Positions 1-64,000 of a stretch of DNA of 64,000 nucleotides are shown one piece after another. Below the pieces are notes generated by a model. That model did no database searches. It saw only the letters and a list, made by a program, of their open reading frames with translations, and was not told where the DNA came from. The DNA is from Candidatus Aenigmatarchaeota archaeon (GTDB taxonomy: Archaea; Aenigmatarchaeota; Aenigmatarchaeia; GW2011-AR5): positions 829 through 64,828 of the forward strand of contig JACPDL010000001.1 of assembly GCA_016184005.1 (NCBI GenBank), given 5' to 3'. Positions within the stretch are counted from its first letter, which is position 1, and each line of letters opens with the position of its first letter. The position numbers were made by a program, and so were the translations under genes.

Positions 1-191
1 AATTTAGTACCGAACTTTGTTAATTCATTGAATTCCTTCTTTGGATCCGGAATGGCGATCTTTTTCATTAACACAAGGTCGCCAAGTCTGCTTACCACAA
101 GCCTGCTGCCTTCCTCAATCCCAAGATCGTTTCTTATCTCCTGGGGTATGACAACCTGTCCCTTGGACGTTACTTTTGTTACTTCTGACAT
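1..191 (-). CDS. AbrB/SpoVT-family DNA-binding protein (antitoxin-like); 3' end runs off the window
   Basis: My own translation from the ATG at 191 gives MSEVTKVTSKGQVVIPQEIRNDLGIEEGSRLVV... The SKGQVxIPxxIR motif is typical of the AbrB/MazE fold. GAGGTGA lies just upstream of the ATG. It is absent from the ORF track because no stop codon falls inside the window. Confidence 0.6.
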   Translation of the reverse strand, partial: MSEVTKVTSKGQVVIPQEIRNDLGIEEGSRLVVSRLGDLVLMKKIAIPDPKKEFNELTKFGTK

Positions 192-381
192 GACATCACC
201 TCTCAGTAAGAATGTATTACTTTCCAACTTTATAAGGTTTACGGTAATCGGCTAGCAGGGAACGCGACAAAGAAACTGAAAAGGGCAGGCGACGTTCACC
301 ACGGCGCTGTCAGCGCCGGCGCCTTATAAACAGCCCAAACACCGCAATATTTAAATACTTTCCGGCTTTAACTATTAAACA

Positions 382-909
382 GTGATAATCATGCAGTACA
401 AATCAAGGTGGGCAAGAGGCCTTGTGGCTTCCCTCGGACTGATGGCAGCCGCGCACGCGCCCGCATACGCGCAGGGCGTTGCGGCAAAGGACAGCGGCAA
501 GGACGGGCCCGACGGCAGGCAGTACAGGGTCATCGCAATCCATGCCAACGGCAACGCCAACGGCTCGAAGCCGCTGATCGTCCTCGACAGGCTCGACGAC
601 GGCATAAGAATAGAGCCTTTCCTGTCCCCATGGCAGTACACGGAATCCACAGGCTCAGCAGCCGTGGACGCGGCAGGCTTCAAGGGCTACACAGCAGAGA
701 AGATCATGGACAGGGGCAGCGTAATAGGCTACGTGCTGGAGCCGCAGGACAGCCCGGGCGCAGGCAGGATACTCTACTCCTTCGACAACAGCAGGAACGG
801 CAAGGCCGTCATGCGAGTCTCCCAGGAAAGCCTGACCCAAGCCGGAGGAGCAGGTGGGGCTGGGGGAGATGGCGGAGCCGGAGGCGGCGGGGCTGGCGGC
901 GGGTATTAA
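382..909 (+). CDS. Secreted hypothetical protein with a Gly/Ala-rich C-terminal tail, in a GC-rich block
   Basis: It has a signal-peptide-like N-terminus (RGLVASLGLMAAAHAPAYAQG) and a tail GGAGGAGGDGGAGGGGAGGGY. An alternative start is at 391. GC content is far above the window average, and overlapping same-length ORFs in other frames are the expected GC artefacts. Confidence 0.5.
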   Translation: MIIMQYKSRWARGLVASLGLMAAAHAPAYAQGVAAKDSGKDGPDGRQYRVIAIHANGNANGSKPLIVLDRLDDGIRIEPFLSPWQYTESTGSAAVDAAGFKGYTAEKIMDRGSVIGYVLEPQDSPGAGRILYSFDNSRNGKAVMRVSQESLTQAGGAGGAGGDGGAGGGGAGGGY

Positions 910-918
910 CTTCTCATT

Positions 919-3726
919 CTAACAGCCAGTTGCTATAAATGAATTAGTTATTGATACACTATTCAAATTATTATCTGTGCCACTGAGTGTTTCTATAAAA
1001 TTTCTAGGTTGACAGTATGTCCAAAATGCGCCTGGGATTATTACATCACCACTCGCAGGAACAGATACTGAAATACTCAAGCAATCGGTTGTTTCTGGGA
1101 ATCCTCCACATGCTGCCCAATACCTACATTTGCTAGTTAATGTTACACCAACGTTGTTTGTTTCTTGTACTCTAGTTGAATAATAGTATGCTGTAGCACC
1201 TTCTGGTGGTGTGATAGGCGACCCGCCACAAACCGCTGAACAGCTTGGTCCGCACGCCAAGCTTGCAAGCAGCACAGCCATCTTCACGCAGGTGTCGCCC
1301 GTCTGGGCATAATTCGGCGGGCAGCCGCACACGCTGGCTTTGTCGATCAGCGCGCCGGCCTGGCAGAACTTCGGCTTGGTCAGGCTGCATGCGCCGCTGG
1401 CTGTGCCGTCGGGGCATGACGGCGAGCAGGGCGTGCTTGTTTCCGTATAGTATCCTGACGGGCAGGAGGGGCTTAAGGAGCATGAAACTGTCTGGGCGGG
1501 CTTCGCGTAGCAGTGGCAGTTCCACTTGTCCGGGATGAAGAAGAAGACCCAGTGGCAGGCGGAGCCTTCAACGCTCTTCACGTTCCCCGCGCCGTATACG
1601 GGGTCATACGCATTCTCGCAGTCGTCGTCGCAGCTGGAAACGCACATCGTCTCGATGTACTGCCAGTCATTGCTCCTGCATGTCAGCGCGTTCCATCCGG
1701 GGAGCACGCAGTTGTCTCCGCTCGCCGTGTAGCCCGCAGGGCAGCCGCAGGTGCCTGCCCTGCTTACAAGGCCGCCGCCCTCGCAGCGCAGGGGTTTCGT
1801 TGCGCTGCACGCGCCCTCAAGCGTGCCGTCCGAGCACACGACCACGCAGCTATCACCACTCACCGCATATCCCGAAGGGCATCCGCATATGCTGGCCCTG
1901 TTGACGAGGCTCCCGCTCAGGCAGTACTTGGGCTTCGTTATGCTGCATGAGCCGCTGGCTGTGCCGTCGGGGCATGTTGGCACTATGCAGCTGTCTCCGC
2001 TCGCGACGTATCCCGAAGGGCATCCGCACACGCTGGCTTTGTCAACAAGCGCCCCGTCCTGACAGTACTTAGGCTTCGTTGCGCTGCATGAACTGTATGC
2101 AGTGCCGTCGTTGCATGTCGGAACCACAGGGGTGCAGCTGTCTCCGTTCACTACATAGCCAAAGGGGCATCCGCATATGCTGGCCCTGTTGACGAGGCTC
2201 CCGCTCAGGCAGTACTTCGGCTTCGTCACGCTGCATGCACTGTACGGCGTGCCGTCAGCGCATGTCGGCAGAACGCAGCTGTCTCCGCTCGCGACGTATC
2301 CCGAAGGGCATCCGCACACGCTGGCTTTGTCAACAAGCGCGCCGGCATCGCAGTACTTGGGCTTGCTCGTGCTGCAGCTGCTGTACGCAGTCCCGTCAGC
2401 GCATGTTCCGGCGACGTTCACCACGGCGCTGTCAACGGCGACGCCTCCCGGCCCTGTGCACGTCAGCGTGTAGGTCTGTGTTGCGGTTATCGGCGGTGTA
2501 AGCTCTGATCCTGACAGGCTTTTCGCGCCGGACCACGAACCGGATGCAGAGCAGGAATCCGCGTTTGATGATGTCCACGAAAGCGTTGCCTGCGAGCCGT
2601 AGGCAATAGTCGGGCTCTCCATGCCGTTGGCCTTTATGTCGACAACCGGCAGGACGCACGGCCCGCAGTCGGCCGTGCACGTCGAGCAGGTTTCTCCAAG
2701 CTCGCATCCGTTGGCTCCGCACGTCGTGCAGGTGGCGTTGGCTATGACGTCACCGGAGCTGCATGTCGGCACCGATGCGCAGATGGTCTGGAAATCCTGC
2801 GTGCATGTAGTTTCGAATATTAGAGGAAATGTGGGAACGCATGATATTGTCGTGTAACCCGGCGGGCACGGCGGGCAGGTGAGAATCTGCGTCACGGTTG
2901 TCGTTTCCCTGCACGTGAGCCGGGTGGTTGTAGGCAGGCTAGCGATGGCCACAGTGACATTGTCGCTTGCCGTCCCGCCTATTCCTGTGCACGAAAGATA
3001 GAACGTTTTTTCCGATGTTACCGGCGGCGTAATCTCCGTGCCAGTGAGCGGCTTCGAGCCGGACCAGCCGCCGGATGCCGTGCATGTGCTTACGTTGGAA
3101 GACGTCCACGACAGCTCGACAGACAGGCCCGAGCGTATCACGAGGCTGTCGTTGCCGTCACCCTTCAGGTCCACAGCAGGCAGGGGGCACGTGCCGCAGT
3201 CAGCCGCGCAGGTAGCGCATGTTTCGCCGGCCGCAGCCTGGCAGAACATATCACCGCATACTACGGACCGGCAGCTTCCGTCTGCCGCGCAAACCTGCCC
3301 CAGCGGGCAGCTGCATGTGGTGCATTTATTGACAAGCGTGCCGGCCTGGCAGAACTTCGGCTTTGCCGCAGAGCACCTGTCATATGCAGTGCCGTCAGCG
3401 CACGCCGCCGCCACGCTGCCAAGGTCCGACAGGTAGACCCTGTTGTCGCCGGCCAGCAGATGTGAGACAAGCTCGACGTAGGGACTGGTGAGGCCCGCCA
3501 TCGGTATGCCGTATCCTGTGAAGTCGACATCCACATAAGGCTTGTTCACGGCCTGGATTACCTTCTCAGACGCCATCAGGGTTCTCGGCGAGTTGTAAAG
3601 GTTAACGGTTATAATAAACTGGTAAGGCACAGGCTGATCAAGCGGTATTTTTAGGCTGCCCACGATCTGCGCATGGCCAGTCGCAGCAGCAAGCAGAATA
3701 GCGACAATGAAAATTATTTTTTTCAT
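919..3726 (-). CDS. Large secreted cysteine-rich repeat protein (adhesin or surface-protein-like), with two Ig-like domains and at least 7 copies of a ~47-aa six-Cys module
   Basis: The ORF is 919..3750. I prefer the start MKKIIFIVAILLAAATGHAQ (ATG at 3726) because it gives a Sec-type signal. The repeat module is C-x-DGT-x4-CS-x2-KPK-[YF]-C-x2-G-x-L-[VI]-x3-[SGT]-x-CGCP-x-GY-x3-GD-x-C. Two SWTSSN...C.ASG.WSG domains are each preceded by GETC.TC.ADCG.C. Confidence 0.8.
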   Translation of the reverse strand: MKKIIFIVAILLAAATGHAQIVGSLKIPLDQPVPYQFIITVNLYNSPRTLMASEKVIQAVNKPYVDVDFTGYGIPMAGLTSPYVELVSHLLAGDNRVYLSDLGSVAAACADGTAYDRCSAAKPKFCQAGTLVNKCTTCSCPLGQVCAADGSCRSVVCGDMFCQAAAGETCATCAADCGTCPLPAVDLKGDGNDSLVIRSGLSVELSWTSSNVSTCTASGGWSGSKPLTGTEITPPVTSEKTFYLSCTGIGGTASDNVTVAIASLPTTTRLTCRETTTVTQILTCPPCPPGYTTISCVPTFPLIFETTCTQDFQTICASVPTCSSGDVIANATCTTCGANGCELGETCSTCTADCGPCVLPVVDIKANGMESPTIAYGSQATLSWTSSNADSCSASGSWSGAKSLSGSELTPPITATQTYTLTCTGPGGVAVDSAVVNVAGTCADGTAYSSCSTSKPKYCDAGALVDKASVCGCPSGYVASGDSCVLPTCADGTPYSACSVTKPKYCLSGSLVNRASICGCPFGYVVNGDSCTPVVPTCNDGTAYSSCSATKPKYCQDGALVDKASVCGCPSGYVASGDSCIVPTCPDGTASGSCSITKPKYCLSGSLVNRASICGCPSGYAVSGDSCVVVCSDGTLEGACSATKPLRCEGGGLVSRAGTCGCPAGYTASGDNCVLPGWNALTCRSNDWQYIETMCVSSCDDDCENAYDPVYGAGNVKSVEGSACHWVFFFIPDKWNCHCYAKPAQTVSCSLSPSCPSGYYTETSTPCSPSCPDGTASGACSLTKPKFCQAGALIDKASVCGCPPNYAQTGDTCVKMAVLLASLACGPSCSAVCGGSPITPPEGATAYYYSTRVQETNNVGVTLTSKCRYWAACGGFPETTDCLSISVSVPASGDVIIPGAFWTYCQPRNFIETLSGTDNNLNSVSITNSFIATGC
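1693..2403 (-). repeat. Tandem array of five Cys modules inside the large CDS, with an A-B-A-B structure of about 288-nt period
   Basis: The segments at about 1881-1940 and 2169-2228, and at about 1997-2050 and 2285-2338, are near-identical at the nucleotide level. Further diverged copies lie at 3262..3402 and 1282..1416. Confidence 0.85.
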
Positions 3727-3796
3727 GCTGAAAATAATTATTCCCGCCACCAGATAAAGATTTTTGGCTCATTAGAACCCGTCATTATATTTAATA

Positions 3797-4171
3797 TTAT
3801 TCTACCGAAGGCCTTATTCCTTCCCAGACCTGGTATCTGTCCGACTGCAGCAGAATAAGATCAAAAGTTACAGTCTTGCTGGTACAGTCATTAATTGTGT
3901 AAAAAACATCAACTGCGTAGCCAATCCTGCCTTTTGAAAGCTGGAAGAAATAAATGTAATCATTCAGGTTTTCCGAAAGTTCCTCGCAAGTGTTCCCCGA
4001 CAACTGGATTGTCCTTTGCAGCCCCTGCTTCAGGTTTGCAAAATGATAGTCTTCGTTATAGCTGGACGTGCCTGCCGTATCAACAGCATTGAAGCTGCGC
4101 AGGTTAGAGGAAACGGCAAAGACCGAGAATGCGATGAATATAGCAGATATTGCAAACCATTGCCCTTTCAT
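3797..4171 (-). CDS. Small type IV pilin-like protein (class III signal peptide candidate)
   Basis: The N-terminus MKG|QWFAISAIFIAFSVFAVSS has K-G followed by a hydrophobic helix, as in archaeal prepilins. The gene sits directly upstream of, and co-oriented with, the large Cys-rich protein. Confidence 0.45.
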   Translation of the reverse strand: MKGQWFAISAIFIAFSVFAVSSNLRSFNAVDTAGTSSYNEDYHFANLKQGLQRTIQLSGNTCEELSENLNDYIYFFQLSKGRIGYAVDVFYTINDCTSKTVTFDLILLQSDRYQVWEGIRPSVE

Positions 4172-5854: not shown

Positions 5855-6244
5855 TCACTTTCCGTCAGATTTGCTGAAATCCCTGAGATCGCGGATTCCC
5901 AGGTACTTGTCTTTCGCGGATTTTATTGTCCCAGTCACTCCAAGCACGCGAACAACGGCTTTTGTCTCGCCGATTATCTGGATCATCATGAGCGAAGCCC
6001 TTGTATATTCCACGAAGTCATGCTGGCATTTAACTACGCCACGCTGCTGTTTATCGTCAAAAAGATTCTTAATGACCCAAATGCGCGCATCAGCAACGCC
6101 ATTTTCGCCGAGCAGATTCAGCAGCGAGGACCAAAAGGCTGTCATGAAGTCTCCGTACTCAACAGGTTTCTCGGAAATTATTTCAAAAACTACATACCTC
6201 TTGTGTGCCCGCATGCTTGGCGGCAAAAGTTTCGGTTCGGCCAT
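5855..6244 (-). CDS. rnp2: RNase P protein component 2 (Pop5)
   Basis: MAEPKLLPPSMRAHKRYVVFEI... is Pop5-like. I trimmed the track ORF (5855..6292) to the ATG at 6244 because the extension reads through a hairpin repeat. Confidence 0.8.
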   Translation of the reverse strand: MAEPKLLPPSMRAHKRYVVFEIISEKPVEYGDFMTAFWSSLLNLLGENGVADARIWVIKNLFDDKQQRGVVKCQHDFVEYTRASLMMIQIIGETKAVVRVLGVTGTIKSAKDKYLGIRDLRDFSKSDGK

Positions 6245-6246
6245 AA

Positions 6247-6296
6247 ACAAATCCCTTTCTTTTATGAAAAGAAAGGTCTTTGTAAACCCCAAAGAA
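6247..6296. repeat. Two-hairpin element filling the MazG-Pop5 spacer; same family as the tRNA-Pro(CGG) intron
   Basis: ACAAATCCCTTTCTTTTatgAAAAGAAAGGTCTTTGTAAACCCCAAAGAA shares identical blocks of 15, 15 and 12 nt with 52981..53026. Confidence 0.8.
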
Positions 6297-6301
6297 AAGA
6301 T

Positions 6302-6625
6302 TTACAGGACCTTATCTTCTTTTTTACCATTATATTTTTCAATTATTTTCTTATGCGTCAATTCAAAGGCCTCTTCGGCATCTACATCTAATTGATTTGC
6401 TAATCGGAGGATCCCGAAAAGCAAGTCCCCTACACCATCTTCAAATATCTCCTTCCTTTCTTCGAGCATCTTTTTCCTCTCGTTCAAGTTTTTATATCTC
6501 AGATACCTGCTCATTTCTATAAGCTCTTCATGAAGATGATCAAACTTATCCATATTGGGCTCATCTTTCCAGTCGTTCTTCTTCGCAAATTCCTTAACGA
6601 TTTCTTGAGCATCTTTGATTTTCAT
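6302..6625 (-). CDS. MazG-like nucleotide pyrophosphohydrolase
   Basis: It is a small all-helical protein with the EELIEM...ED..GDLL acidic motifs typical of MazG/NTP-PPase. Confidence 0.7.
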   Translation of the reverse strand: MKIKDAQEIVKEFAKKNDWKDEPNMDKFDHLHEELIEMSRYLRYKNLNERKKMLEERKEIFEDGVGDLLFGILRLANQLDVDAEEAFELTHKKIIEKYNGKKEDKVL

Positions 6626-6656
6626 TTTTTCACTTCAGTTCATTTTTCGTAATAGG

Positions 6657-6751
6657 CTTGAATAGGAGAGGAGGTTGATACGTGCAGAAAGCTTCGCTTT
6701 CTGACGTGCCAGAAAAGCTATGCTTCTCTGAGCAAGGATGTTCTCGACTTA
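6657..6751 (-). repeat. Family-2 composite hairpin element, long copy
   Basis: The minus strand reads AAGTCGAGAACATCCTT + 2 hairpins (CAGAGAAGC..GCTTtTCTG, CAGAAAGCgaaGCTTTCTG) + GTATCAACCTCCTCTCCTATTCAAG. It is near-identical to 38855..38943. Confidence 0.85.
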
Positions 6752-6764
6752 TCAATATTTTAAT

Positions 6765-6809
6765 TAGGAGAGGAGGTTGATAAGGATGAGAACCTAGGTT
6801 CTCGACTTA
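6765..6809 (-). repeat. Family-2 element, minimal copy, beginning with the Rpp30 stop codon
   Basis: The minus strand reads TAAGTCGAGAACCTAGGTTCTCATCCTTATCAACCTCCTCTCCTA. The TAA is the stop codon of the 6807..7517 CDS. Confidence 0.85.
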
Positions 6810-7517
6810 TTCATCAACTATTGTTACTCCTTCCCATCTTTTGCCTTCGAGCTTTTCCCTGTTTTGCTTGGCTATTCCTTCAGGGACGGCGGAAACAGAA
6901 TCTATTGCCTTCCCGAGATCCATGCCCAGTATATTCCCCAGTCCAGCCATGTCACGGGGAGACCGCATGTTCCATTTCGTAACAGCGCCCGAGGCTATCA
7001 CAACGCTTGCATTATAATTCTTGCACAGCATTACATTTTTTTTCATAGCTGCAATTATATGGACGCGCTGCTTCTTGTAGGACTCGAGGACTTCCCGGAA
7101 ATTCACCTCTATTGCAACGCTGTTTTCAGCTGCAGCTTTTGCGCATATATGGTCAAGCCCGGAATCTTTCCTGCCAAGCTCGGGATGGCAAAGTATATCG
7201 ACCAGCTGGTTTTCGCATGCGGCGCGGTTGACATCATAATCGCCACCATGAACCATCAGCACTTCCGCGCTATTTCTCACCTTCGTAGCAAGGATATTGA
7301 GCTCTTCCGGATTTTTCGGTTTAAGCATAACCGCATTAACAATGTCCATGCTTGCATCAGCTGTTTCCAGATCTTTCTTTGGCAAACGCGTGCCGTCGTA
7401 ATAACGAACCATGCCTATTCCATTAAGACCCAGCTTGGTTGCGAAGTCTATCGTCTCTTCGGGCGTTGATTCGCCTATGGATAGTGTTGTATGCACGTGC
7501 AGGTCGTAAAATGCCAT
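6807..7517 (-). CDS. rnp3: RNase P protein component 3 (Rpp30, PHP/TIM-like)
   Basis: It starts MAFYDLHVHTTLS..., a PHP-type motif. I trimmed the track ORF (to 7718) because its N-terminal 67 aa translate the hairpin array. Confidence 0.75.
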   Translation of the reverse strand: MAFYDLHVHTTLSIGESTPEETIDFATKLGLNGIGMVRYYDGTRLPKKDLETADASMDIVNAVMLKPKNPEELNILATKVRNSAEVLMVHGGDYDVNRAACENQLVDILCHPELGRKDSGLDHICAKAAAENSVAIEVNFREVLESYKKQRVHIIAAMKKNVMLCKNYNASVVIASGAVTKWNMRSPRDMAGLGNILGMDLGKAIDSVSAVPEGIAKQNREKLEGKRWEGVTIVDE

Positions 7518-7653
7518 GATAACCAATAAAATTTTGAGATGAAAGCTTAAAAGAGCCTTTTCTTTTAAGAAAAGAAAACCCTCGGGAAATCTGCAAAGAG
7601 CAAAGCTCTTTGGGATGCCAGAGAAGCTTTGCTTCTCTGAGCAAGAAAAACGA
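7518..7653. repeat. Array of three or more short hairpin modules between L15e and Rpp30
   Basis: The modules are CCTTTTCTTTTaagAAAAGAAAAcc, CTGCAAAGAGCaaaGCTCTTTGgGAT and CCAGAGAAGCtttGCTTCTCTGaGC. Confidence 0.8.
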
Positions 7654-8148
7654 TTACAACCCTCTGCTTTTTTTCCCGGCGCTGGTAAGTCCTCTAAAGG
7701 CACGCCGCCTGTGTGCAAGAACCCAGTTTATTGACCTGTCCTTTGCAACTGCAGGATGATGCGGATCAACAAGGATGACCTCAAAATAATGATTCTGCCC
7801 ATCACGGCCAACGGAATAAGAATTAATGACCTCAAGGTTCGGAAACTTTCGTGCGGCCCGCTTTTCTGCAATTGCCTGCTTGCTTTGCGCCGTGGTAAAG
7901 AAGCGGCCGTAGCTTCGCGGTTTTCTTCCTTTCCAGATTTTCGGCCTCTTCCTGCCGCCTTTTTTTATGCGTGTGCGAACAATAACAAAGCCCTGCTTGG
8001 ATTTGTAACCTAAACCGTGTGCCCTGTCAAGCCGCGTAGGCTTCTCAAGCCTTTCAACAACGTCCTGCTTCCTCCAAAGCCGCGCCCTCTCCTTGTATAT
8101 CGCTTTCGGTTTTTTCCACGCTTGGCGTATATGCTTATAGACTCCCAT
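7654..8148 (-). CDS. rpl15e: 50S ribosomal protein L15e
   Basis: [15 protein letters not shown]... is the canonical L15e N-terminus. I trimmed the start from 8190 to the ATG at 8148. Confidence 0.9.
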
Positions 8149-20675: not shown

Positions 20676-20722
20676 GAGGAGAACAAACCTACGGTTTTTC
20701 TCCTTCTAACCTCTTTTCCCTC
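20676..20722 (+). terminator. Family-4 hairpin with a T-rich tract
   Basis: GAGGAGAACAAACCTACGGTTTTTCTCCTTCTAACCTCTTTTCCCTC begins immediately after the stop codon. Confidence 0.65.
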
Positions 20723-20763
20723 TAACAGAAAATTATATCTACAACCGAGACGAATTAGCTAGC

Positions 20764-38854: not shown

Positions 38855-38943
38855 TAAGTCGAGAACATCCTTGCTCAGAGAAGCATAGCTTCTCTGGCAC
38901 GTCAGAAAGCGAAGCTTTCTGCACGTATCAACCTTCTCTCCTA
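38855..38943 (+). repeat. Family-2 composite element directly after the eif5a stop codon
   Basis: TAAGTCGAGAACATCCTT + CAGAGAAGCataGCTTCTCTG + CAGAAAGCgaaGCTTTCTG + cacGTATCAACCTTCTCTCCTAA. Confidence 0.85.
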
Positions 38944-39056
38944 AATAAAAATATTACTTAAGAAAAGATTGCAAGAAGAAATGTAAAGAAACGGTCTTTG
39001 AATTTTCTTTTTGGACATACAAAGACTTTTTCTTTCCTAAAGAAAAAGGATTTGTT

Positions 39057-40097
39057 ATGAAGTTGATCGTCGGCATTGATCCGGGCATAACAGCCGCTGT
39101 TGCTTTTCTTGACGCTGAGACCGATTTCTACATAACTATTAGCAGGAGAAACTTCTCGTTCAGCGAAATATGCGAAACAATAGCCGAACGCGGCGATCCG
39201 ATAATCGTTGCTGCTGACACGCAGCACGAGCCGCAGATGCTGAGAAAGATATCCAGCACTTTCGGCTGCAGGCTGCACGTGCCAAAGAAGGACATGATGG
39301 TCGGGGAAAAGAAACTAATTACTGAAGGCTTTGGTTACCACAACGACCACGAAAGGGATGCACTTGCATCTGCGATACACGCCAAACAGGAATTCCGGCC
39401 CCTTTTTGACAAGATAGATTCCTACCTCGAAAAGAAGGGCATGAAAAGACTTTCGCCTGACGTAAAAGAACTGCTTGTGAAAGGCGAAGCTGCAAACATA
39501 GAACAGGCGGTGAAGATGCTGACAAGCGAGGAAAGAAAGGAGACAAGGGTTATTTCGAGGATAATAGAATCAAAGAAAGTGCTTGAACTCAGGCAAAAAA
39601 TACACCAGCTGGAAAAGGGAAAAAGCATACTTGAAGACTATGCGAAACACCTGGAAGGCGAAAACAAATTTCTGAAAAGATTAGAGCCAAAGAGATCATG
39701 GAACAAAGAACCAAAGATACGCATACTCGAAGAAGCTTTGTCTGGATTGAGAAAAGAGAGAGAACGCCTAAAAAACGAAATGGAAAGTTACAAAAACCTG
39801 ATCGGGAAAGACATTGAATTGGTGCATGTGTACGAGGAAGGCGGGGATTTTTCCGGAAAAATTGTCCTTGCAGAGAATAAGTTCAACCGGCGCGCGCTGG
39901 AGAAGCAGAATCCCAAAGCCATTATTTGTGACACGGCATTCCCGGCAGAAATTCCGATTATACCAAGGGATAAGGTTAAAATACACGCCATCGGCAATGT
40001 TTTAGTAGTGGACAAGCATGAGCTGGAGAAAGGCCTTCAGGAGTCTTTTATCGTCTGGCTCAAAGCCTACAAGGAAAGGCGGGCGGTACAGGAATAA
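39057..40097 (+). CDS. DUF460-like archaeal protein (RNase H-fold N-terminus plus a coiled coil)
   Basis: MKLIVGIDPGITAAVAFLD... and HERDALASA are RuvC/RNase H-like acidic motifs as seen in DUF460. Confidence 0.6.
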   Translation: MKLIVGIDPGITAAVAFLDAETDFYITISRRNFSFSEICETIAERGDPIIVAADTQHEPQMLRKISSTFGCRLHVPKKDMMVGEKKLITEGFGYHNDHERDALASAIHAKQEFRPLFDKIDSYLEKKGMKRLSPDVKELLVKGEAANIEQAVKMLTSEERKETRVISRIIESKKVLELRQKIHQLEKGKSILEDYAKHLEGENKFLKRLEPKRSWNKEPKIRILEEALSGLRKERERLKNEMESYKNLIGKDIELVHVYEEGGDFSGKIVLAENKFNRRALEKQNPKAIICDTAFPAEIPIIPRDKVKIHAIGNVLVVDKHELEKGLQESFIVWLKAYKERRAVQE

Positions 40098-52941: not shown

Positions 52942-53066
52942 GGGCTTGTAGTCTAGCTTGGTAGGACTCCGGCTTCGGGAACAAATCCCTTTCTTGTAAG
53001 AAAGGTCTTTGTGAACCCCAAAGAACGAATTAGTCGGGAACCTGAGTTCAAATCTCAGCGAGCCCA
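52942..53066 (+). tRNA. tRNA-Pro(CGG) with a canonical 52-nt intron at 37/38 (about 52980..53031)
   Basis: Spliced: GGGCTTG TA GTCT AGCTTGGTA GGAC T CCGGC TTCGGGA GTCGG GAAC CTGAG TTCAAAT CTCAG CGAGCCC A. All stems pair, with one G-U in the acceptor stem. Position 37 is G, as expected for Pro. Confidence 0.85.
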
Positions 53067-63089: not shown

Positions 63090-63150
63090 TTCCAGATTTT
63101 CTTAGCAGATTCTTTTTCCAGATTCTCTTAGCAGATTCTTTTTCCAAGGT
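63090..63150. repeat. Tandem direct repeat of about 26 nt, roughly 2.5 copies
   Basis: TTCCAGATTTTCTTAGCAGATTCTTT / TTCCAGATTCTCTTAGCAGATTCTTT / TTCCAAGG...; it lies downstream of the LamG gene stop codon. Confidence 0.8.
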
Positions 63151-63173
63151 TTTTCTTTTAAAGAAAAAGCTTT

Positions 63174-64000
63174 TTAGCACGCGTTCCCCCAGTTCACGAA
63201 CGCCTCTATGGCGAGTGTTATCAACGAGCCTGCATTCGGCTGTATCCTGCAGTCCGTGGCTGTCACGTTGCTGTTCCTGAAGATGACCGTCCCTGAACTG
63301 CCCTGTATGAATATGTTTGTCACCTGTATGCTCTTCCCGTCTATGACGCAGTTGTCTGAAGCCTCTATCGTCCAGTTCACCGGGTTCCCTTGGTTGAGAG
63401 GAGGGGGATTGCAGGTCAGGGCTTCCCCGCCCCCCACTGAAATGAACGTGCTCGGCACATACTGGTTATTGTACTCCGTCTTTATCTGGTCGGGGTTCAG
63501 CGTGCCGTTGTAAATCCTGACTTCTGTCATCTTGCCGTCGAATGTTCTGGCAAGCGAACTTCCCGGAGCATCAGAGTTGCCGATTACCAGATTGAAGGCT
63601 GCGTCACTTACATAAGCTCCAGATGGCAGCACTCCATCCCTGAATGTCGCTATCAGGCTGCCGTTCCTGTAAAACGTTGCGTTTGTCGTGGCAGCCGCAG
63701 AAACGTTGTAAGTAACTACTGTGTGCTGCCATGAATTTGTTCTCATCGTGTTGTTCGCGGCATTGTAGAATCCATCGTTTGTCGCAAAGTCTATGTTCAT
63801 TCTCGTGGTTTGCTTTGTCGTTGAATTGGTATTGCCCACGAAGAGAAGCCAGCTCTGCTTGTCCATTATCCTGCCGAAGCTGCTTTCCCCGTATGTGTCG
63901 GCGTTGACCCATGCGACCAATGAAAACTGTTTGAGATTGTTTATCACGGCGTTCTGTGTGACGTTGATGCCGTCATCTGCGCCATCAAAGTTATTTGCGC
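63174..64000 (-). CDS. LamG/concanavalin-like domain secreted protein; 5' end lies outside the window
   Basis: ...FDGADDGINV...FSLVAWV...FDGKMTEVRIYNGTL is the Laminin_G_3 pattern. The reading frame stays open upstream of the track start (GTG at 63947) to the window edge. Confidence 0.75.
   Translation of the reverse strand, partial: ANNFDGADDGINVTQNAVINNLKQFSLVAWVNADTYGESSFGRIMDKQSWLLFVGNTNSTTKQTTRMNIDFATNDGFYNAANNTMRTNSWQHTVVTYNVSAAATTNATFYRNGSLIATFRDGVLPSGAYVSDAAFNLVIGNSDAPGSSLARTFDGKMTEVRIYNGTLNPDQIKTEYNNQYVPSTFISVGGGEALTCNPPPLNQGNPVNWTIEASDNCVIDGKSIQVTNIFIQGSSGTVIFRNSNVTATDCRIQPNAGSLITLAIEAFVNWGNAC

Follow-up and report, generated by a model that had tools for sequence, protein, structure and literature searches.

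How does one short sequence come to occupy both an intron of a transfer RNA (tRNA) gene and the spacer between two protein genes? The question is raised by a 64,000-nt window, the whole stretch of DNA analysed here, from Candidatus Aenigmatarchaeota archaeon (contig JACPDL010000001.1 of assembly GCA_016184005.1), in which the intron of a tRNA-Pro(CGG) gene and the spacer preceding the gene for Pop5, an RNase P protein subunit, carry a closely similar structured element. The explanation preferred here, to which a probability of roughly 0.65 is assigned, is that the element belongs to a proliferating structured family of the Aenigmatarchaeota, of which the intron copies would be spliced out, and the solo copies next to protein genes lie mostly antisense to them and are devoid of a splicing motif. 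The features of the window that bear on this question are collected in Table 1.

Table 1. Element copies and associated features in the 64,000-nt window
Feature	Position	Strand	Evidence or description
tRNA-Pro(CGG) gene	52942..53066	+	5' exon 52942-52979, intron 52980-53031, 3' exon 53032-53066
Relaxed bulge-helix-bulge (BHB) of tRNA-Pro	52974..53032	+	BHB scan
Element core within the intron	52981..53025	+	nhmmer E=3e-14; structure counts
Spacer copy	6247..6303	+ DNA strand, antisense to both flanking genes	nhmmer, alignment
Pop5, RNase P protein subunit	5855..6244	-	Pfam PF01900, E=1.8e-18; homologues named Aenigmatarchaeota Pop5
107-aa open reading frame (ORF), 'MazG-like' in the initial annotation	6302..6625	-	ORF list
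Third, diverged copy	39003..39056	- (element sense)	nhmmer E=8e-7; missed by the initial annotation
DUF460 gene	39057-40097		Pfam DUF460
Sister-family hairpin	7553..7580	+	CCTTTTCTTTT-aag-AAAAGAAAA, then CCCTCGGG
Rpp30	6807-7517
L15e	7654-8148

The initial annotation had described the intron and the spacer as near-identical in blocks, with one symmetric length change, and both the quoted sequences and this description were upheld by alignment and shuffling. Between the intron and positions 6247-6298 of the + strand, the identical runs amount to 16, 15 and 12 nt (AACAAATCCCTTTCTT, AAGAAAGGTCTTTGT and AACCCCAAAGAA), and the two differ in length only by TT...AA, which extends the first stem symmetrically. 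A 28-mer of the element, searched with up to three mismatches, matched these two sites only; 0.00 matches were expected from 100 shuffles. In the spacer copy, ACAAA (6247-6251) is followed by CCTTTCTTTT (6254-6263), the loop ATG, AAAAGAAAGG (6267-6276) and TTTGT (6279-6283), and then by the linker AAACCCC, a third tract AAAGAAAA (6291-6298) and GATTT (6299-6303), the last being what remains of the closing strand and overlapping the upstream ORF's stop codon. The copy fills the gap between this stop codon (6302-6304) and the Pop5 start codon (6244-6242), which is 2 nt away from the 5' end of the element. The earlier placement in a stop-to-start gap is retained, with its extent set to 6245-6301 and with one consequential correction: since both Pop5 and the 107-aa ORF are encoded on the minus strand, their messenger RNA (mRNA) holds the reverse complement of the element, and so of the intron. 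The name 'MazG-like' given to the 107-aa ORF was left unconfirmed by Pfam, which returned zero families at E<=1e-3; a 107-aa gene stands at the corresponding place upstream of Pop5 in locus L065 (labels of this kind denote family loci in genome and metagenome collections, together with the orthologous loci compared).

The 52-nt intron that had been proposed at position 37/38 of the tRNA proved exact in its coordinates. ARAGORN reported zero tRNAs on the unmodified window, because the intron is invisible to it, and called tRNA-Pro(cgg) once the intron had been excised in silico with the cut after position 37, while Rfam detected a tRNA over the entire gene at 45 bits with 56 unaligned nucleotides within the anticodon loop. 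The exons are identical to those of an Aenigmatarchaeota metagenome-assembled genome (L002), the orthologous intron of which also carries the element. The BHB scan delineated tccggc UUCG (GG/A) ... CGAA (UU/A) gucggg, that is, a 6-bp outer helix which is the anticodon stem, a 4-bp central helix of UUCG (52974-52977, tRNA positions 32-35) with CGAA (53026-53029), and two bulges of 3 nt each, GG/A (52978-52980) and UU/A (53030-53032). By the strict hBHBh' criterion, the inner helix next to the 5' bulge has length 0, and the motif is hence classified as relaxed. The core inside the intron is composed of an outer stem ACAAA (52981-52985)/TTTGT (53008-53012), an internal loop TC/TC, an inner stem CCTTTCTT (52988-52995)/AAGAAAGG (52998-53005), the linker GAACCCC and a third tract AAAGAA (53020-53025). 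Direct reading of the 52 nt found neither a C box (RUGAUGA) nor a D box (CUGA), so that the intron is not of the C/D box small RNA type. It represents a short family member, in which the core and the CGAA adaptor are kept and the 3' repeat is absent. The UUCG/CGAA central helix is also employed by T-loop introns of the family, e.g., in L015 and L036, and the tRNA-Pro intron can carry this T-loop-type adaptor because UUCG is likewise found in the Pro(CGG) anticodon loop; most likely, it was derived from a T-loop intron.

That one family occupies both tRNA introns and intergenic sites, as had been claimed, holds on a far wider scale than the window. A scan of the genome collection with 19 fixed bases from the second half of the element recovered four archaeal matches, named Aenigmatarchaeota or 'uncultured archaeon', and three bacterial chance matches. 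The four archaeal matches represent four settings, namely the tRNA-Pro intron (L002), a site beside the start codon of a gene on the other strand (L003), a site directly 3' of a tRNA end (L004) and a 5S ribosomal RNA (rRNA; L005). The metagenome scan, whose pattern fixed the inner stem and GGTCTTTGT only, gave 57 loci, and a profile search over all collected sequence resulted in 82 non-redundant copies, diverged ones included, on ~60 contigs, with a density of up to four copies on 9 kb. Homologues of the Pop5 and DUF460 proteins of the window are named Candidatus Aenigmatarchaeota as well, and the viral contigs scanned contained zero copies. In Rfam 15, only the tRNA reached the gathering score and nothing meaningful was found at E<=1 across 6150-7700, which leaves the element without an Rfam family; it is also undescribed in the literature searched.

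The copies fall into several contexts, which were assigned from flanks, ORFs and in-silico splicing, with approximate counts. Introns account for ~18 copies in tRNA T-loops after GGUUCRA, ~15 in D-loops or D-arms and six in anticodon loops (Pro, Cys, Met-like and others); one copy is located in 5S rRNA, ~7 form tRNA 3' trailers 2-3 nt past the discriminator base, and ~5 lie upstream of a tRNA. All of these are in sense orientation, amounting to ~50 of ~50 copies in stable-RNA transcripts. At protein genes, at least 12 copies lie with the 5' end 0-2 nt away from a start codon whose gene is on the opposite strand and are antisense to that gene, and three copies directly after a stop codon are sense. 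After in-silico splicing, the host tRNAs belong to several amino acids, e.g., Pro, Cys and Trp, the other ARAGORN calls being noisier; similar introns in different tRNAs and at different positions, the criterion of the Thermoproteales type, are a property of the family. Excision yielded an ARAGORN tRNA for ~25 copies only, a limit of single-intron splicing that arises because many tRNAs hold several introns.

Several of these settings show peculiarities of their own. At L005:3472-3678, a 5S rRNA (Rfam 45 bits) bears a 92-nt insertion in loop C, which starts with the element and ends with GGGATTTG; a strict BHB was not found at its borders. To our knowledge, no 5S rRNA intron has been described in archaea. 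At L010:6400-6512, L013 (reverse strand 150-300), L044 and L051:10640-10800, the element precedes a complete tRNA gene, the 5' end of which is irregularly duplicated over 10-19 nt on the other side of the element. This duplicate could mark a past insertion or recombination event or represent an intermediate stage in the gain or loss of an intron.

With regard to its anatomy, the core measures ~45-55 nt and the full-length introns 70-120 nt. The full-length order runs from (A)CAAAUCCC through the inner stem, UC, UUUGU, a linker (7 nt in most copies), CCC-AAAGAA and an AT-rich hairpin to GGGAUUUG and a 4-nt adaptor. In full-length copies, the 3' strand GGGAUUUG pairs with the 5' end CAAAUCCC to form the inner helix of the strict hBHBh'; the 3' repeat is missing from short members, among them the window intron. 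Exon and adaptor are paired with each other, as in L036, gcgcg UUCG (AA/A) ... gggauuugc CGAA (AC/U) cgcgc, and the alternative pairings GUUC/GAAC and UUCA/UGAA are found in other copies. A strict hBHBh' bounded at the 5' end of the element was identified in 8 of 18 T-loop and 2 of 15 D-loop copies. The linker between hairpin and downstream tract accepts insertions of 50-60 nt (L017, L022, L032:10596-10780, L034 and L060:554-700), and L017, L022 and L032 share one such insert, indicating sub-lineages of composite elements.

The initial annotation had proposed a two-hairpin element, of which only the first hairpin survived a comparison of a 48-copy alignment with 500 column shuffles. This hairpin extends outward via ACAAA/UUUGU, resulting in a 15-17-bp structure with a conserved 2x2 internal loop, the inner stem of which pairs a pyrimidine tract with a purine tract. 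For the long hairpin as a whole (outer stem, internal loop and inner stem), 98.5% of the cells are paired, a value reached by 0 of 500 shuffles; compensatory changes occur at 10 of 15 pairs, and slid registers drop to ~60%. Variants of the outer stem include ACAAA/UUUGU, UCCAA/UUGGA, GCCAA/UUGGC, ACCAA/UUGGU, AUGAG/CUCAU, AUCCA/UGGAU and GUAAA/UUUAC. The second hairpin, UCUUUG/CAAAGA, is no better than the shuffles (90.3% paired vs a shuffle mean of 90.2%, reached by 254 of 500, with one compensatory change), and its pairing is lost whenever the outer stem changes.

The downstream tract has a different relation to the hairpin. Reading CCC-A(a)-G-A(b), it mirrors the purine arm A(b)-G-A(a), being neither a copy of that arm nor the complement of the pyrimidine arm. 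The run lengths vary over a = 2-5 and b = 1-6, and the tract follows a in 71/74 and b in 57/74 copies, its distance to the hairpin being constant at 14 nt in most of them. Parallel columns of the inner 5' arm and the downstream tract scored 97.4% vs a shuffle mean of 92.6% (0/500), with 11 double changes, and among 81 asymmetric pyrimidine-tract hairpins the mirror image follows 70 and a direct copy 17. Mirror symmetry of this polarity is what base triples require; a third strand tracks the purine strand with the polarity demanded of a major-groove triple helix, and, judged from sequence, the three-strand covariation is of the triplex type. In the intron sense, the predicted structure would be a purine-motif triplex, and in the opposite sense it would be the classical U.A-U / C+.G-C type with tandem G.A pairs in the internal loop. 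The predicted stability of the hairpin is higher in the reverse sense for 68 of 76 copies (mean -14.2 vs -11.9 kcal/mol), and the wobble pairs, namely 5 G.U vs 0 A.C in the outer stem and a repeated U.G in the closing helix, speak for the intron sense. The covariation itself is equally compatible with RNA and with folded single-stranded DNA.

Copies at protein genes could be followed across orthologous sites. The third copy of the window, read on the + strand as TTTTCTTTTT-GG-ACAT-ACAAA-GA-CTTTTTCTTT-cct-AAAGAAAAAG-GA-TTTGT-T, lies 1 nt from the DUF460 start codon. Besides Pop5 and DUF460, the genes behind start-codon copies encode uS2, eS6, uL18, aEF-1beta, an aminotransferase and an M42 peptidase, the names outside the window being read from their translations alone; they are housekeeping genes with plausible N-termini. 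The Pop5 spacer copy is present in L065 (Pop5 79% identical), where each of the three tracts is one residue longer (a=4 vs a=3 in the window) and the outer stem is changed, and the Pop5 spacer is without the element in L066 (80% identical; a 30-nt spacer with GAGGGG before the ATG) and L068. The DUF460 leader copy is present in L069 (94%), L070 (83%) and L071 (78%) and absent from L072 (57%); its run length changes from a=5 in the window to a=3 in all three tracts of L070, where the outer stem reads AUAAA/UUUAU. The copies of L069 and L071 are interrupted by other small hairpin repeats, whose insertion points coincide exactly with the hairpin loop and the linker.

These inserts belong to a second small hairpin repeat family (CAAAGAGC-nnn-GCTCTTTG and CCAGAGAAGC-nnn-GCTTCTCTGAGCAAG) of intergenic spacers, which was seen at 7586-7645 and 38870-38925 (reverse complement) of the window, at L069:1355-1400 and 1430-1480 and in L071; in relatives, it is lodged within the main element of the DUF460 locus, both in the loop and in the linker. 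At L059 (reverse strand ~1322-1400), a truncated 5' piece (ACAAATCCCTTTCTTT) is followed by a full copy adjoining the ATG of the M42 peptidase gene, a partial tandem duplication. The window site 20676-20725 corresponds to L019:5951-6010, both lying after the stop codon of the first of two adjacent ~550-565-aa genes; it was sought as the empty site of the L019 sense copy and turned out to be occupied by a different, purine-arm-first hairpin (AGGAGAA...TTCTCCT), and L067 has hairpins similar to it.

Three further readings of the start-codon copies were considered. A promoter was rejected as their main explanation, since no TTTAWA box was found at a fixed distance, the box distance in the element varying because stem and loop lengths vary. 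Across ~60 ORF upstream regions of the window, a TTTAWA box ~23-32 nt before many ATGs suggests leaderless transcripts, and other genes display GGTGA/GTGAT 5-10 nt before the ATG, i.e., a GGUGAU-type Shine-Dalgarno sequence. As a supplier of such a sequence the element is weak, offering only GGGAU vs the local GGTGA/GTGAT. A cut by RNase Z at the foot of the hairpin, releasing a leaderless mRNA, was discarded as well, since at a spacing of 0-2 nt the AUG would often be lost.

The hairpin at 7556-7580 had been regarded as a looser relative of the element. It belongs instead to a sister family, whose architecture consists of a pyrimidine arm, a loop, a purine arm, CCCUCGGG and a mirror tract. 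In the window it is antisense to the spacer leading from L15e to Rpp30 and has lost the third tract; the orthologous L15e-Rpp30 spacer of L065 keeps the full three-tract form, also antisense, and sister copies are sense in the D-loop tRNA introns of L004, so that the orientation rule is the same in both families. The whole L004 locus (reverse strand) comprises two tRNA genes with several sister-family introns each, in the D-loop and elsewhere, both of which score below the Rfam gathering score; in this lineage, standard tools are likely to call far too few tRNAs.

According to the preferred explanation, the element constitutes a lineage-specific, non-coding structured repeat family of the Aenigmatarchaeota (DPANN), which has multiplied within these genomes and would persist at sites that either are cleared of it by host RNA processing or tolerate its presence. 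In stable-RNA genes, the copies are all sense and occupy sites from which host enzymes would remove the element. In an intron copy, the terminal helix would serve as the inner helix of the BHB, and the copy-specific 3' adaptor together with the local exon would supply the 4-bp central helix, so that the tRNA splicing endonuclease (EndA) would be expected, from the motif, to cut the intron out; leader copies would presumably be discarded by RNase P and trailer copies by RNase Z. Copies between protein genes are solo elements without a splicing motif; mostly antisense, they would be carried in the mRNA as the reverse complement and left unspliced. Spread at the DNA level appears favoured, and reverse splicing into mRNAs is unlikely because the gene-adjacent copies are antisense. 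Presence and absence at orthologous sites, nested repeats and the partial tandem copy count for proliferation.

Several observations weigh against this explanation. No transposase, recombinase or other mobility gene was linked to the copies, what speaks for mobility being solely their distribution; most copies show no flanking duplication, a regular target-site duplication was not found, and neither was a conserved target tetra- or pentanucleotide 5' of the left end, where the flanks vary (CAT, CATA, CAGT, CAAC, GAAA, CCTA, CCA and others). Both collection patterns fixed part of the element, by which the diversity of the family is under-sampled, and the context counts are approximate as stated. 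The missing inner helix of the window intron would make its cleavage dependent on a broad-specificity endonuclease. Beside protein genes, the structure-preserving evolution suggests either a function in place or gene conversion. The start-codon copies might be merely the only insertions that compact genomes tolerate; their strong orientation bias and their abutment on true housekeeping starts suggest that they are beyond what is simply tolerated.

These last points lead to the strongest rival, which we hold to be possible and clearly second in likelihood, namely that the gene-adjacent copies are functional cis-acting structures of the mRNA, with the tRNA copies as a selfish or neutral side of the family. 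The mRNA would read U-tract, linker, pyrimidine arm, loop and purine arm, so as to place a hairpin with tandem G.A pairs and a U.A-U / C+.G-C major-groove triplex right before the AUG, which could govern how stable the mRNA is, how its 5' end is protected or how translation of the downstream gene is initiated. Such a role would fit the at least 12 antisense copies 0-2 nt from verified starts vs three sense copies after stops, a third strand that runs parallel to the purine arm in the mRNA sense as the pyrimidine triplex motif needs, and a hairpin predicted to be stabler in that sense; the three tracts change together at the orthologous Pop5 and DUF460 copies, nested insertions are confined to loop and linker, and the sister family obeys the same orientation rule. 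It is opposed by the wobble pairs, which favour the element (+) sense and include a U.G closing helix in the gene-adjacent L053, by the spread over 12 different target genes with no single conserved regulon, and by the relatives L066, L068 and L072, which manage without the element.

More speculative, and unlikely, is the proposal that one repeat family links stable-RNA processing to gene expression, be it through introns acting in trans or through leaders as triplex cis regulators. Sense copies would be set free in quantity from tRNA and 5S precursors, as introns, leaders and trailers, and antisense copies folded into triple-helix hairpins would stand exactly at the start codons of genes for ribosomal proteins, an elongation factor and RNase P subunits. 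If true, archaeal tRNA-intron sequences would for the first time be given a regulatory role other than that of guide RNAs, and a natural triplex element of such architecture would likewise be a first. The trans form, taken by itself, is improbable. It holds that released tRNA introns act as antisense RNAs on start-codon copies, coupling both transcription and processing of tRNAs to the expression of genes of translation and RNase P, and the sense orientation in tRNA transcripts with the antisense orientation at starts is the complementarity it requires. The duplex of the tRNA-Pro intron with the Pop5 leader is predicted at -66.9 kcal/mol, ending 2 nt before the AUG, against a sum of -36 for the separate folds; primary sequence, and not structure alone, is conserved, and the would-be targets include Pop5, uS2, eS6, uL18 and aEF-1beta, with Rpp30 for the sister family. 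There is a parallel in yeast, where free tRNA introns (fitRNAs) lower the levels of complementary mRNAs (bioRxiv 10.1101/2025.11.19.689297); the likeness lies in an excised tRNA intron with long mRNA complementarity, but theirs is located in ORFs of a eukaryote, and here a repeat family would hypothetically act on the leader up to the start codon. On the other side, copies on the same contig differ in stem lengths and outer stems (four in L063), which would often make the partners imperfect, both RNAs are tightly folded, and three gene-adjacent copies are sense.

It is likewise improbable, and slightly more so, that the element acts as DNA, through a single-stranded hairpin or triplex or through H-DNA, as a target of a recombinase or transposase or with an effect on replication or transcription, the RNA structure being incidental. 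Intramolecular DNA triplexes classically require purine/pyrimidine tracts in mirror repeat, and the element possesses them; the purine-motif triplex that the intron-sense RNA would form is poorly tolerated by RNA, and the covariation fits folded single-stranded DNA equally well. However, an associated enzyme gene was not found, an IS200/IS605-type target tetranucleotide was absent, the viral contigs gave zero matches, and the strict orientation to transcription units points to a constraint at the RNA level.

The initial annotation had also raised the idea that the spacer copies are excised as substrates of the splicing endonuclease, which would amount to endonuclease-dependent processing of the operon mRNA, and had asked for their BHB geometry. 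Near-identity to a genuine intron speaks for it, and there is precedent for EndA substrates other than tRNAs, comprising rRNA processing stems, the Cbf5 mRNA intron and a BHB in the 5' untranslated region of Haloferax HVO_1309 that is cut by the enzyme (PMC7714728). Unlike those substrates, the window spacer copies are antisense to the mRNA and without a BHB. Around 6247-6303, 39003-39056 and the other gene-adjacent copies, the scan of both strands found only 2-3 low-complexity outer pairs; in the element sense a BHB was obtained for 0 of 12 gene-adjacent copies, and the reverse-sense hits (4/12) have no common architecture and equal the background of 5/18 and 6/15 given by tRNA copies on their meaningless strand. 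The CGAA adaptor of the intron is replaced by AAAG in the Pop5 spacer. Because the genes are on the opposite strand, the mRNA carries the reverse complement, which by geometry should put each bulge 5', and not 3', of the central helix and would no longer be a BHB. Splicing of the spacer is consequently very improbable.

A chance likeness of low-complexity sequence, to which the T/C-rich and A/G-rich stem tracts might point, is practically dismissed by the zero matches expected from shuffles and by the collection scans, which recovered ~80 further copies having non-repetitive parts (ACAAATC, GGTCTTTGT, CCCCAAAGAA) unfixed by the search patterns. An att-site reading, in which direct repeats 46.7 kb apart would bound an element integrated at the tRNA, was ruled out because the interval carries core genes (L15e, Rpp30), because the repeat coincides with the intron and not the exon, and because dozens of further copies exist.

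Compared with known systems, the proliferating family resembles most the transposed BHB introns of Thermoproteales tRNAs (Fujishima et al. 2010), for which the summary in PMC4090602 describes similar introns at several tRNA positions and a spread thought to occur at the DNA level by an unknown mechanism. A BHB at the junctions and the idea of DNA-level spread are shared with them. Unlike those introns, the element belongs to a DPANN lineage, lies also in tRNA leaders and trailers, 5S rRNA and protein-gene spacers, and possesses a three-strand-covarying core and an orientation rule relative to mRNAs, none of which appears in the literature searched. Repetitive extragenic palindromes and bacterial interspersed mosaic elements (REP/BIME), as well as palindromes resembling miniature inverted-repeat transposable elements (MITE), are comparable in being short, imperfect, multi-copy palindromes of operon spacers, often right after a stop codon, with nesting and with presence varying among relatives. 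Unlike them, the element is archaeal, shows no regular target-site duplication or link to a REP-associated tyrosine transposase (RAYT) or other transposase, doubles as a spliceable stable-RNA intron, and carries a third, mirror-image tract.

With major-groove triple helices of the type found in the element for nuclear expression (ENE), telomerase RNA and riboswitch pseudoknots (review PMC13541005), the candidate structure has in common a U-rich strand that, in the mRNA sense, could run alongside the purine strand of an A-U-rich helix in parallel orientation, with U.A-U triples and one C+.G-C, as well as three covarying strands, recognised here from sequence alone. Unlike them, it combines a 5' third strand with a hairpin, has neither a U-rich internal-loop clamp nor a poly(A) partner, and belongs to an archaeal, multi-copy element. 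DPANN archaea are noted for increased disruption of tRNA genes, and the DPANN genomes in which tRNAs were predicted excluded Aenigmatarchaeota (PMC5829648). What is new is the lineage, the 5S rRNA, tRNA-flank and spacer copies, the orientation rule and, to the extent of the sources consulted, the triplex-type core.

The origin and movement of archaeal tRNA introns is an open question, for which the earlier evidence was similarity among introns only. Here, a single element is found in introns at three tRNA positions, in 5S rRNA, in flanks and in spacers, varying among genomes, and this variation over many contexts renders its ends, adaptors and insertion sites directly comparable and the mechanism testable. 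Three-strand covariation is a rare sequence-level signature of a triple helix and would make the core a new structured motif in a poorly known archaeal phylum, and the orientation rule at start sites of translation genes makes it conceivable that sequence derived from introns has acquired a regulatory role. Introns of this kind also explain tRNA genes that standard finders miss in this lineage.

Two further features of the window were recorded. Its first part (1-4000) has 56% G+C vs ~44% elsewhere and contains a 935-aa ORF (919-3726, minus strand) with no Pfam match at E<=1e-3. At 63144-63178, a perfect pyrimidine/purine hairpin, TTTTTCTTT-t-AAAGAAAAA, is followed by GCTTTTT; it has no mirror tract, is situated at a gene end and looks like a terminator-type structure.

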